The notes under the pieces were generated by a model. It had not been told where the DNA came from. It saw only the letters and a list, made by a program, of their open reading frames with translations, and did not search any database. A DNA stretch of 2,046 nucleotides from Escherichia coli (GTDB lineage: Bacteria; Pseudomonadota; Gammaproteobacteria; Enterobacterales; Enterobacteriaceae), in the NCBI RefSeq assembly GCF_036507355.1, contig NZ_AP027885.1; one strand, given 5' to 3'. The position numbers were made by a program, and so were the translations under genes. Shown one piece after another: positions 466-2,046 of this stretch. The number at the start of each line of letters is the position of its first letter. Position 1 is the first letter of the stretch.

Positions 466-900
466 TTAGGTTCTGCCGCCCTGTATAACGCTGAGGCCGT
501 TTTTTAGTGCTTTCTTGTGGTTGCTGACAGTACCTTTCCAGCCAAACTGAGGGTTCAGACGGTAACTGTAACTGCGCCCTACTTTTGGGCCTTGAAGAAT
601 CACGGATAGGTCAATTAGCGCCTTAACCGAACGGCTTACATTGGTTTTCTGCATACCTAAAGCGTCGGCAATATCGGCTTGGGCAATTTGGATGTAATTT
701 TCATAATCGAGATCAGCTAACAGCATCATCAAGACTTTGAATTGCTCCCCTGTGAGGGTCTTAGCAAGGATCTTTAAAGCGTCTTGGTTCATAGTGAAAT
801 GCCTCTCAAAAGCTGACTTCTGTTTGGGTCGGATAACTGCGACAAAACTACCTACCTCTTCCCCTGTAGCAGTGTCTATCTGAGTAATTCGGTTACTCAT
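466..900 (-). CDS. 144-aa predicted winged-helix/HTH DNA-binding protein; candidate small plasmid replication initiator (RepL-like) or autoregulatory repressor
   Basis: ATG is the reverse complement of 898-900 and the TAA stop is the reverse complement of 466-468. An RBS GGGAGAG lies 8 nt upstream (rc of 907-913). The protein has an HTH-like segment (GEQFKVLMMLLADLD...IQIAQADIADALGMQKTNVSRSVKALIDLSVI). The gene has lower GC than its flanks. Palindromic repeats sit in its promoter region. The Rep-versus-regulator call is inference. Confidence 0.75.
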   Translation of the reverse strand: MSNRITQIDTATGEEVGSFVAVIRPKQKSAFERHFTMNQDALKILAKTLTGEQFKVLMMLLADLDYENYIQIAQADIADALGMQKTNVSRSVKALIDLSVILQGPKVGRSYSYRLNPQFGWKGTVSNHKKALKNGLSVIQGGRT

Positions 901-1258: not shown

Positions 1259-1382
1259 TTCACCGGATAAAACAGGCTTGGCAGTGGTGGGGGGTGGCGC
1301 GGAGCGACGCCTTCCACCTGCCAGACTGCCGTTGATTTTGACCTTCTGGCAGCTTGCTGCCCGAACGATTTTGCGTAGCAAA

Positions 1383-1413
1383 GTCTAGTGAGTACACTAT
1401 CATCCTGATAGTG
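1383..1413 (+). promoter_or_regulatory. Candidate oriT core / relaxase operator: nested inverted repeats sharing arms, about 70-95 nt upstream of the relaxase start
   Basis: Seen in sequence: TAGTG (1386-1390) - AGTA - CACTA (1395-1399), overlapping the 8-3-8 palindrome CACTATCA (1395-1402) - TCC - TGATAGTG (1406-1413). Alternative hairpins with shared arms are typical of MobV-type oriTs. A possible weak promoter overlaps: -35 TTGCGT (1371-1376), -10 TACACT (1393-1398). The functional assignment is inference. Confidence 0.35.
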
Positions 1414-1468
1414 GCCCGCCGGAGGCATCGCAATGCGATCCCCCGACTGGCTGGATGTACGCCAGAAC

Positions 1469-1475
1469 GAGGGGG
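1469..1475 (+). promoter_or_regulatory. Ribosome-binding site for the relaxase gene
   Basis: GAGGGGG lies 5 nt upstream of the ATG at 1481. Confidence 0.6.
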
Positions 1476-1480
1476 TAAGC

Positions 1481-2046
1481 ATGGCGAATTACGCGATAAT
1501 GCGCTGCAAAAAGCTGACGGGAATGGGCAGTGTGGCCAGCGCTTTGCAGCACTGCTACAGGGAGCGTGAGACGCCGAATGCTGACGCTGAACGGACACCA
1601 GAAAACTACTGCTCTGTGTCTCAGTCGGCAGATGAGGCGATGGGAAAGCTGCGGGAGCTGTTGCCGGAAAAACGCCGTAAAGATGCGGTACTGGCTGTTG
1701 AATACGTTATGACGGCAAGCCCTGAGTGGTGGAACGAGGCCACACCGCGGCAGCAGGCGGAGTTTTTCGCCCGTTCTGAGCAATGGCTGGAGAACAAATA
1801 CGGGAAAGATCGCGTTGTGGCGGCGGTGGTTCACAGGGACGAGGCCACCCCGCACCTGTCTGCGTTCGTGGTGCCATTGACGCAGGATGGGCGGCTGTCC
1901 GCGAAAGAGTTTATTGGCGGGCGGTCAAAGATGCGTGACGATCAGAGCACCTACGCTGAATCGGTAAAAAAACTGGGTCTTGAGCGCGGCATCGAGGGAA
2001 GCCGTGCCACGCATCAGACAGTTCAGCACTACTACGAATCGATAAA
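1481..2046 (+). CDS. mob: MobV-family (Mob/Pre, pMV158 MobM-like) plasmid mobilization relaxase, N-terminal relaxase domain; 3'-truncated by the window edge
   Basis: ATG at 1481 is preceded by the RBS. The frame is open through nt 2046 (188 codons, hand-translated, no stop), which is why it is absent from the ORF track. The translation (MANYAIMRCKKLTGMGSVASALQHCYRER...RKDAVLAVEYVMTASPEWW...AAVVHRDEATPHLSAFVVPL...LERGIEGSRATHQTVQHYY) matches, from memory, the conserved MobV blocks: the N-terminal M-x-Y-x-V-x-R-x-Q-K region, an HNER-like motif, the RKDAVL block and the HxDE..PH metal-binding motif. Confidence 0.9.
   Translation, partial: MANYAIMRCKKLTGMGSVASALQHCYRERETPNADAERTPENYCSVSQSADEAMGKLRELLPEKRRKDAVLAVEYVMTASPEWWNEATPRQQAEFFARSEQWLENKYGKDRVVAAVVHRDEATPHLSAFVVPLTQDGRLSAKEFIGGRSKMRDDQSTYAESVKKLGLERGIEGSRATHQTVQHYYESI

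Follow-up and report, generated by a model that had tools for sequence, protein, structure and literature searches.

Palindromes around the predicted MOBV-type origin of transfer and in the mobV leader of a 2-kb Enterobacterales plasmid

The closest described relatives of the locus analysed here are the origins of transfer (oriT) of the plasmids pMV158 and pBBR1. The locus lies at positions 1344-1487 of a 2,046-nucleotide stretch of Escherichia coli DNA (contig NZ_AP027885.1; the whole stretch is called the window), directly upstream of the relaxase gene mobV, and an earlier note had drawn attention to two short palindromes in it. On pMV158 the relaxase MobM contacts 5′-AAGtaTAGTGTG-3′ and cuts TGTG/TTATAC, with the inverted repeat IR1 ending 8 nt 5′ of the nick; it is the mob coding strand that is transferred (PMC5863519). 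Mapped nicks read TAGTGTG/TTA for pMV158 and TAGTGCG/TTA for MobSag (PMC5090054), the pMV158 promoters lie in or adjoin oriT, and the relaxase represses its own synthesis (PMC5863519, PMC5090054). pBBR1 is given as the MOBV2 prototype in publications that cite Szpirer et al. 2001 (PMC4981023, PMC3632715, PMC5789077 Table S1), the last of which lists its nick-centred 10-mer as GTATA/CTCAC, equivalent to GTGAG/TATAC on the other strand.

We consider it rather probable that 1344-1487 comprises a pBBR1/pMV158-type (MOBV) oriT followed by the mobV leader, with palindrome 1 in a hairpin (H1) that serves as a clamp and the bases of palindrome 2 in a hairpin that occludes translation. The module is a pBBR1-type (MOBV2) oriT/mob on a different, very small replicon, pBBR1 being known here through secondary citations. 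The encoded MobV matched Pfam Mob_Pre (PF01076) over residues 1-185 at 6.8e-46 and 157 bits (cut-off 25.5), the NCBIfam MobV equivalog NF041497 at 160.9 bits (cut-off 100) and the MobM N199 relaxase-domain structure (PDB 4lvi) at E = 2.6e-14, placing it in MOBV by profile match over the N-terminal relaxase domain. MOBV motifs I and III, defined as HxxR and HxDExxPH (bioRxiv 10.1101/2022.12.05.519187, after Francia 2004), are present as QHCYRER and VHRDEATPHLS; the last H of HxDExxPHxH is replaced by S.

Both palindromes were recovered with the sequences and positions that had been reported: palindrome 1 is GGCAGC-TT-GCTGCC at exactly 1348-1361 and palindrome 2 is ATCGCA-A-TGCGAT (ATCGCAATGCGAT) at exactly 1427-1439. 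Each has an imperfect extension, TTCTGGCAGC/GCTGCCCGAA for palindrome 1 (1344-1365, 9/10 paired) and GGCATCGCA/TGCGATCCC for palindrome 2 (1424-1442, 8/9 paired). A third and stronger inverted repeat, absent from the earlier note, lies between them (CACTATCA-TCC-TGATAGTG, 1395-1413). Dinucleotide-preserving shuffles were used as the chance control. Taken singly, such palindromes are near chance, as had been claimed: the whole window holds 4 tight inverted repeats (arms of at least 6, loop of at most 3) against 1.8 in shuffles (P=0.13), or about 1.8 expected per 2 kb. The further claim that the region is unusually dyad-rich was also borne out. Three inverted repeats (arms of at least 6, loop of at most 8) fall within the 92 bp of 1348-1439 against 0.18 ± 0.41 expected (P~0.001, for an interval picked after the data had been seen), and the leader at 1160-1480 has 3 against 0.56 in shuffles (P=0.02); palindrome density in shuffles did not equal that of the native sequence.

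On the + strand, which is the mobV sense, the order of elements is H1, CGAACGA, hairpin A, CTAGTGAG with the predicted nick, hairpin B and mini-hairpin C (Table 1). Positions 1365-1426 correspond to the invariant block of an alignment of 17 diverse plasmids (A1), within which AAAGTCTAGTGAGTA is invariant. The window reads AAGTCTAGTGAG/TACAC at 1381-1397, giving the nick motif TAGTGnG/T on the mob-sense strand as TAGTGAG/TAC at 1386-1395, and C1385-G1392 are the 8 nt that follow the AAAGT arm of hairpin A, so that an inverted repeat ends 8 nt 5′ of the nick. Compared with the pBBR1 10-mer GTGAGTATAC, the window's GTGAG/TACAC is nearly identical (9/10 positions), and the exact pBBR1 10-mer occurs in relatives L002, L036 and L049. 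From this comparison with the pMV158, MobSag and pBBR1 nicks, the nick is therefore predicted at G1392/T1393 of the + strand, 8 nt past hairpin A, and by analogy this strand would be the one nicked and transferred. The palindromes had been thought to lie between oriT and the ribosome binding site; instead, the oriT core and the predicted nick are located between palindromes 1 and 2, which thus flank the core.

To extend the comparison beyond alignment A1, genome and metagenome contigs were scanned for an invariant 15-18-mer and only loci with hairpins A and B were kept, a requirement that removed the chance matches (~80/105) of the 15-mer scan of genome contigs. The final set holds 96 distinct sequences; the exact seed and the hairpin A/B filter truncate the variation seen in those elements, and the representative sets used below lessen phylogenetic non-independence but do not abolish it. 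In BLAST searches the matches of many plasmids to the window, at 98.6-100% identity, began only at 1362 or 1365, and the most distant relatives retained only ~1360-1427. The MOB cassette therefore begins just after palindrome 1, and its best-conserved part stops just before palindrome 2. Exact palindrome 1 was found in 10/96 distinct relatives and exact palindrome 2 in 15/96.

A few short contigs from unrelated phyla carry an oriT identical or nearly identical to those of Enterobacterales or Pseudomonas plasmids: L039, L045 and L090 (Flagellimonas/Allomuricauda), L057 (Arthrobacter), L083 (Mycobacterium) and L068 (a Bacillota metagenome-assembled genome). These most likely reflect assembly contamination.

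The core hairpins are conserved as structures. Over 37 distinct sequences, hairpin A has 97.3% of its cells paired and shows GC<->AU compensation in 7; its loops are GNA in 51/62 and TNC in 1/62. Hairpin B occurs in 51 stem/loop combinations among the 96 distinct relatives (a descriptive count, its presence having been a selection criterion), starts at the same offset in 87/96 and folds as single-stranded DNA (ssDNA) with z = -5.5. A conserved GCCC directly follows hairpin B, and after it comes the 3-bp mini-hairpin C, NNC-GGA-GNN, where pairing reaches 92.1% of cells (72% in shuffles), both sides are changed in 23 cells, with GC, AU, UA and CG types of pair (ACC/GGT, TCC/GGA, GTC/GAC, ATC/GAT, CAC/GTG, AGC/GCT, GGC/GCC) and the strand bias of GNA loops recurs. 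In short-leader lineages the mobV ATG lies 3-13 nt past hairpin C, so the GGAGG of C is the Shine-Dalgarno sequence there. The + strand of the whole of 1262-1445 folds as ssDNA with z = -3.5. By analogy with the described systems, hairpin B probably overlaps the -10 element and start of the mobV promoter; by eye, a -35 TTGCGT (1371-1376) can be combined with a -10 TACACT (1393-1398), and TATCAT (1398-1403) is another -10.

Palindrome 1 sits 5′ of hairpin A, upstream of the expected mob promoter, and its extended form H1 folds as ssDNA at -4.7 kcal/mol. In most contexts a GC-rich mini-hairpin is found just 5′ of CGAACGA (gap of 1-4 nt), and its sequence differs nearly every time; examples are GGAAGC-GCA-GCTTCC, CCGCC-GCA-GGCGG, GGGGC-GTA-GCCCC, CTCCGGCA-CCC-TGCCGGAG and ACCCGC-TT-GCGGGT. 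In 53 representative contexts (<80% identity in the upstream 34 nt), a perfect hairpin of at least 4 bp ending -17 to -25 from the oriT anchor was present in 39, against 11.3 ± 2.9 in shuffles (maximum 22) and counts of 7-20 in other upstream 9-nt windows of end position. Nearly all 3′ ends fall at -17 to -20, the window's own at -19, and stems of at least 5 bp were seen in 24/53 against 3.5 ± 1.7 in shuffles. Among lineages with the same 5′ flank the stem changes in a compensatory manner (GGCAGC/GCTGCC versus GGAAGC/GCTTCC). The identical relaxase, WP_000024818.1, occurs with GGCAGC-TT-GCTGCC (L012, L016) and with GGAAGC-GCA-GCTTCC (L015), which rules out recognition of the stem sequence by the relaxase. 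On the + strand the triloops are GNA in 19/27 and TNC in 0/27, a bias that would be meaningless for a duplex operator or a cruciform, which argues that the hairpin is formed by the single + strand. These properties fit H1 acting as an ssDNA hairpin rather than as an operator or an element of the mRNA.

Two other roles were considered for palindrome 1. As a double-stranded relaxase operator it would need conserved half-sites, which are not conserved with the same MobV. The reading as an intrinsic terminator was rejected, as the stem lacks a T-run, being followed by CGAACGA, and a terminator scan of 900-1520 found none at 1348-1361. At two loci (L017:421-605 and L153:1583-1767) the palindrome reads GGCAGC-AA-GCTGCC, the exact reverse complement of the window's, between identical flanks, which looks like hairpin-templated loop inversion rather than two independent point mutations. 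Upstream, GGCAG/CTGCC occurs five times in 1273-1361 (at 1280, 1319, 1326, 1348 and 1357), making alternative pairings possible: 1318-1325 pairs with 1345-1352 (8 bp) in competition with H1, and a long GC-rich hairpin forms at 1273-1330 in the ssDNA fold. These are probably the 'nested repeats' mentioned by the earlier reader.

For palindrome 2, 15 distinct homologous leaders were aligned, and pairs were counted for the local hairpin and for a long-range structure. The local hairpin showed no compensatory change and its pair T1428-A1438 is unpaired in 9/15; these counts rule it out as a selected structure. In the long-range structure 1428-1431 pairs with 1484-1487, 1433-1436 with 1479-1482 and the C-run 1440-1444 with G1471-1475, bringing 1428-1436 against GCAUGGCGA (1479-1487), the AUG and codons 2-3. 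This structure is 87.7% paired in the 15 leaders, against 32-58% when the partner is slid, and both sides have changed at four pairs. Pair 1428-1487 is UA in 8, CG in 6 and UG in 1, because the T-to-C change at 1428 is accompanied by a switch of codon 3 from AAT to GCC; the apical hairpin reads CTGGC...GCCGG in relatives, with a U.G pair. ATCGCAATGCGAT owes its local symmetry largely to being antisense to GC-AUG-GCG, which gives CGC..AUGC, CAUG being self-complementary. Only the last GAT of palindrome 2 is specific to this lineage, close relatives having GCT.

Leader folding was then compared in 29 representative long leaders of unrelated sequence, with the 5′ part shuffled as control. In nearly all 29 the minimum free energy (MFE) structure is one long hairpin, its 5′ arm placed 1-2 nt past hairpin C and its 3′ arm covering the Shine-Dalgarno sequence and usually the AUG. 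Mean pairing probability of the initiation region was 0.69 against 0.57 for shuffled leaders and was higher in 27/29 (Wilcoxon p = 7e-8). Relatives carry matched anti-Shine-Dalgarno/Shine-Dalgarno variants (CCCTC/GAGGG, GCTCC/GGAGC, TCCCTCC/GGAGGGA, CTGCCCCC/GGGGGCAG), and window RNA 1405-1500 has an MFE of -35.7 kcal/mol with the Shine-Dalgarno sequence and the AUG both paired. The recurring modelled hairpins point to translational occlusion of mobV. The earlier note had suggested protein-binding or RNA-structure control of mob. RNA structure very probably does control mob expression, through the palindrome-2 bases and by long-range, not local, pairing; the operator half of the suggestion is disfavoured for palindrome 1.

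In near-identical relatives (L004, L012, L013, L015, L124, L153, L163, L219) the Shine-Dalgarno G-run at 1471-1475 has 5, 6, 7, 8, 10 or 11 G, owing either to slipped-strand variation or to errors in sequencing the homopolymer. Were the variation real, it would alter both the Shine-Dalgarno-AUG spacing and the frame of the upstream ATG.

In the mechanism we favour, MobV would nick G1392/T1393 and the + strand would be transferred, as on pMV158 and pBBR1. H1 would fold rapidly on the transferred strand while that is single-stranded, giving a stable clamp to frame hairpin A and the CGAACGA linker; when transfer ends, this clamp may help the relaxase to recognise the reconstituted nick and reseal it. 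The mobV promoter, again by comparison with pMV158 and pBBR1, would be placed within the oriT core, at around hairpin B; MobV, when bound, would thus repress mobV transcription, and the transcript would include hairpin C, palindrome 2 and the C-run. There, to judge from the structure, the palindrome-2 bases and the C-run would form a hairpin of ~60 nt that blocks translation initiation and holds relaxase synthesis low, adding translational occlusion to transcriptional autorepression at the oriT-embedded promoter. A wider proposal, which we put forward only tentatively, is that MOBV2 oriTs are strand-specific arrays of GNA-loop mini-hairpins in which H1 is a structure-only signal (e.g. a termination clamp or priming mark), joined to a conserved leader hairpin that gates relaxase translation. 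To our knowledge, neither a structure-read H1 nor gating by a leader hairpin is part of the described oriT/mob model.

Several observations weigh against this mechanism. H1 is missing in about one quarter of contexts (e.g. L003, L086, L116) and is therefore dispensable or accessory, or part of the backbone and not of the MOB cassette. A folding-energy test on the 34 nt upstream of hairpin A gave -5.3 against -4.2 kcal/mol in shuffles, with 12/53 contexts at P<=0.05; it barely beats shuffles because the flanks are GC-rich, and was replaced by the positional test for perfect hairpins described above. That GNA triloops are especially stable in DNA is taken from the literature rather than computed. 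For the leader, only 5/29 sequences are individually significant, the window's own fold reaches only z = -1.8, and the covariation at 1428-1487 may reflect only one or two evolutionary events. A sigma-70 consensus scan of 900-1520 found no promoter in the mobV leader; that 1427-1487 would be transcribed as a 5′ untranslated region (UTR) follows from homology with pBBR1 and pMV158 and from the covariation itself. Because the mRNA is identical in sequence to the transferred strand, an RNA role and an ssDNA role of the 1427-1487 hairpin are inseparable by sequence.

Complementary-strand priming is the main alternative role for H1, which could be a backbone element, the last hairpin of a single-strand initiation (ssi) or single-strand origin (sso) priming signal or of the nested GC-rich hairpins at 1273-1361, merely abutting the MOB cassette. 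The start of cassette homology just past H1, at 1362-1365, would agree with this, as would the cassettes that lack H1, the arrays of two or three GNA mini-hairpins upstream in many backbones, the five copies of GGCAG/CTGCC in 1279-1361 with their alternative pairings, and the ssi-like palindrome that adjoins the MOB module in pHW126-like plasmids; priming at the 3′ end of the transferred strand would also let the complementary strand be made in one piece. However, H1 keeps a fixed distance of -17 to -20 from the oriT anchor where the backbones are unrelated, as would hardly be expected of two independent elements, and the window already has a separate element resembling the ColE1 primosome-assembly site at ~1072-1195, so that we regard a backbone origin as rather unlikely. 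It is unlikely, too, that the palindromes are double-stranded operators through which a dimeric regulator (MobV, the helix-turn-helix (HTH) Rep or a factor of the host, for example IHF) controls mob transcription. Perfect dyad symmetry is a typical trait of operators, an HTH protein is encoded on the plasmid, the conserved core is followed directly on its 3′ side by palindrome 2, and both pBBR1 Mob and pMV158 MobM are autorepressors that bind in the oriT/promoter region. Yet H1 differs in sequence with an identical MobV and in nearly every backbone while its pairing is kept, a loop bias of 19 GNA to 0 TNC means nothing in duplex DNA, and the half-sites of palindrome 2 are not symmetric in relatives, the element being deleted in Pseudomonas and Salmonella lineages. 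Nor is there any match to the IHF consensus WATCAANNNNTTR in the leader at 1160-1480; the sole matches in the window, with 1 mismatch each, are at 727-742.

Palindrome 2 could instead mark an alternative start, with GGAGG (1421-1425) and ATG 1433 either extending MobV by 16 aa or, in relatives, opening an upstream open reading frame whose ribosomes would open the leader hairpin by translational coupling. ATG 1433 is in frame with mobV, 48 nt upstream (extension MRSPDWLDVRQNEGVS), at a canonical Shine-Dalgarno spacing of 7 nt; the longer start is annotated in GenBank CP099049.1, and the hairpin-C GGAGG is the true Shine-Dalgarno sequence in short-leader lineages. This becomes quite improbable given that relatives do not keep the frame (close ones have leaders of 53, 54 or 55 nt and G-tracts of 5-11), that the Kp_2987 lineage has CTTG in place of AATG, that the Mob_Pre and MobV profiles both begin at the 1481 start, and that anything antisense to CAUG will necessarily contain an ATG. 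Highly improbable, finally, is that the palindromes are chance occurrences without function. The near-expectation of each palindrome singly and the rarity of the exact sequences among relatives would suit it, but three repeats are clustered in 92 bp, the position of H1 is conserved with covariation and the palindrome-2 bases covary with the start-codon region; for H1, chance is already largely refuted.

Table 1. Positions of the oriT, leader and gene features in the window (position 1 is its first nucleotide).
Feature	Position	Strand	Description	Basis
H1	1344..1365 (core 1348-1361)	+	Extended TTCTGGCAG CTTG CTGCCCGAA; accessory mini-hairpin at oriT 5′ edge	Sequence, ssDNA fold
CGAACGA linker	1362..1368	+	Between H1 and hairpin A; MOB-cassette homology starts here	Conserved in alignments A1 and A4
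Hairpin A	1367..1385	+	GATTTTGC-GTA-GCAAAGTC; candidate relaxase-recognition hairpin, by analogy the equivalent of pMV158 IR1	
Nick region	1385..1393	+	8-nt single-stranded tract CTAGTGAG and predicted nick G1392/T1393	Motif comparison
Hairpin B	1395..1413	+	CACTATCA-TCC-TGATAGTG; starts 2 nt past predicted nick	
Mini-hairpin C	1418..1426	+	GCC-GGA-GGC	
Palindrome 2	1427..1439	+	ATCGCAATGCGAT; 1428-1436 form 5′ arm of leader hairpin; holds in-frame ATG 1433-1435	
C-run	1440..1444	+	CCCCC, anti-Shine-Dalgarno; pairs with G1471-1475	RNA folds
Apical leader hairpin	1447..1465	+	CTGGC-TGGATGTAC-GCCAG	RNA folds
mobV initiation region	1469..1487	+	Shine-Dalgarno GAGGGGG 1469-1475, AUG 1481-1483, codons 2-3; 3′ arm of leader hairpin	
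mobV	1481..2046, across window junction to 403	+	Relaxase gene, 969 nt, 322 aa	Continuous reading frame
HTH gene	466-900	-	RepL/MarR-like, 144 aa	Profile search

The window is a complete circular plasmid of ~2 kb of Enterobacterales. It is matched by 204 PLSDB records, 60 of which cover at least 80% of it. Membership of its replicon in the pHW126 family was unsupported, the four 20-bp iterons being absent from the window. Two copies of an 18-bp palindrome, GTTATCAATAATGATAAC, joined by a third dyad (936-952), occupy 925-963 and overlap the only consensus promoter found, which is on the - strand and drives the HTH/rep gene; these repeats are likely to be a Rep operator or iterons. mobV and the rep-like gene converge, with stops at 403 and 466 respectively, and between them the repeat GCCGCAAA-(9 nt)-TTTGCGGC at 431-455 looks, from its sequence, like a bidirectional terminator. 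Non-coding 1072-1195 matched 471 PLSDB records at ~80% identity, in DNA without annotation; 222 of these records are typed conjugative. It aligns with a pUC19/pBR322 segment (TTCCGCTTCCTCG...CTCGCTGCGCT...CTGCGGCGAGCGG) that we take to be the ColE1 primosome-assembly (n′/PriA) site (pas), and it is probably the plasmid's single-strand initiation signal. Rfam gave no RNAI adjoining the pas-like match in pSZECL_c, and an Rfam scan of the window gave no family, its sole match (E = 0.92) lying elsewhere and far under its gathering score.

The oriT-mobV cassette also occurs within a 53.8-kb conjugative IncX3 plasmid, pE-T951-1-OXA-181 (L014, CP090300.1 37186-38185), typed MOBP+MOBV; a carbapenemase plasmid has thus become a cointegrate with the small plasmid or with its MOB cassette. 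MOBV plasmids of ~2 kb and the MOB cassette are very common in Enterobacterales (>200 PLSDB records, including this IncX3 OXA-181 cointegrate), and the cassette travels among unrelated backbones. The predicted nick and the minimal cis-acting module (H1-A-nick-B-C) provide a basis for predicting mobilisable small plasmids and cointegrates. Without overturning current models, H1 and the leader hairpin raise testable hypotheses on how a one-protein relaxosome recognises its origin and how relaxase dosage is limited.

Compared with pMV158, the locus shares a hairpin in the position of IR1, 8 nt 5′ of a G/T nick in TAGTGnG/T, and AAGTCTAGTGAG stands where MobM contacts AAGtaTAGTGTG. Whereas pMV158 has three overlapping, mutually exclusive, AT-rich inverted repeats, the window has four serial, non-overlapping hairpins, with GC-rich accessory hairpins and GNA loops. 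For pMV158 we came across no account of a leader hairpin that occludes the initiation region. Generic 5′-UTR occlusion hairpins resemble the mobV leader in opposing an anti-Shine-Dalgarno C-run to a G-rich Shine-Dalgarno sequence and an antisense segment to the AUG and codons 2-3; the mobV leader differs from them in that no trans-acting partner, ligand or temperature dependence is indicated and that it belongs to no Rfam family.

DNA mini-hairpins of the d(GCGNAGC) type, with a GNA triloop, are reportedly extraordinarily stable (Hirao, Yoshizawa and colleagues). Similar elements recur here on one strand, as H1 variants GC-GCA-GC, GC-GTA-GC and GC-GAA-GC, as hairpin A (TTTGC-GAA/GTA-GCAAA) and as hairpin C (GCC-GGA-GGC), but the loop of the window's own H1 is C-TT-G, not GNA, a class shared with L141, L144, L166 and L211. 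MobV may resemble pBBR1 Mob in sequence as well. As far as the secondary accounts of pBBR1 go, the two systems have in common an oriT directly upstream of a Mob_Pre relaxase gene and an 8-bp inverted repeat with a 3-nt loop, and the window would further share the promoter overlapping oriT and the autorepression by Mob that are documented in pBBR1; the window differs from pBBR1 in its replicon, a 2-kb plasmid with a 144-aa RepL/MarR-like HTH protein.

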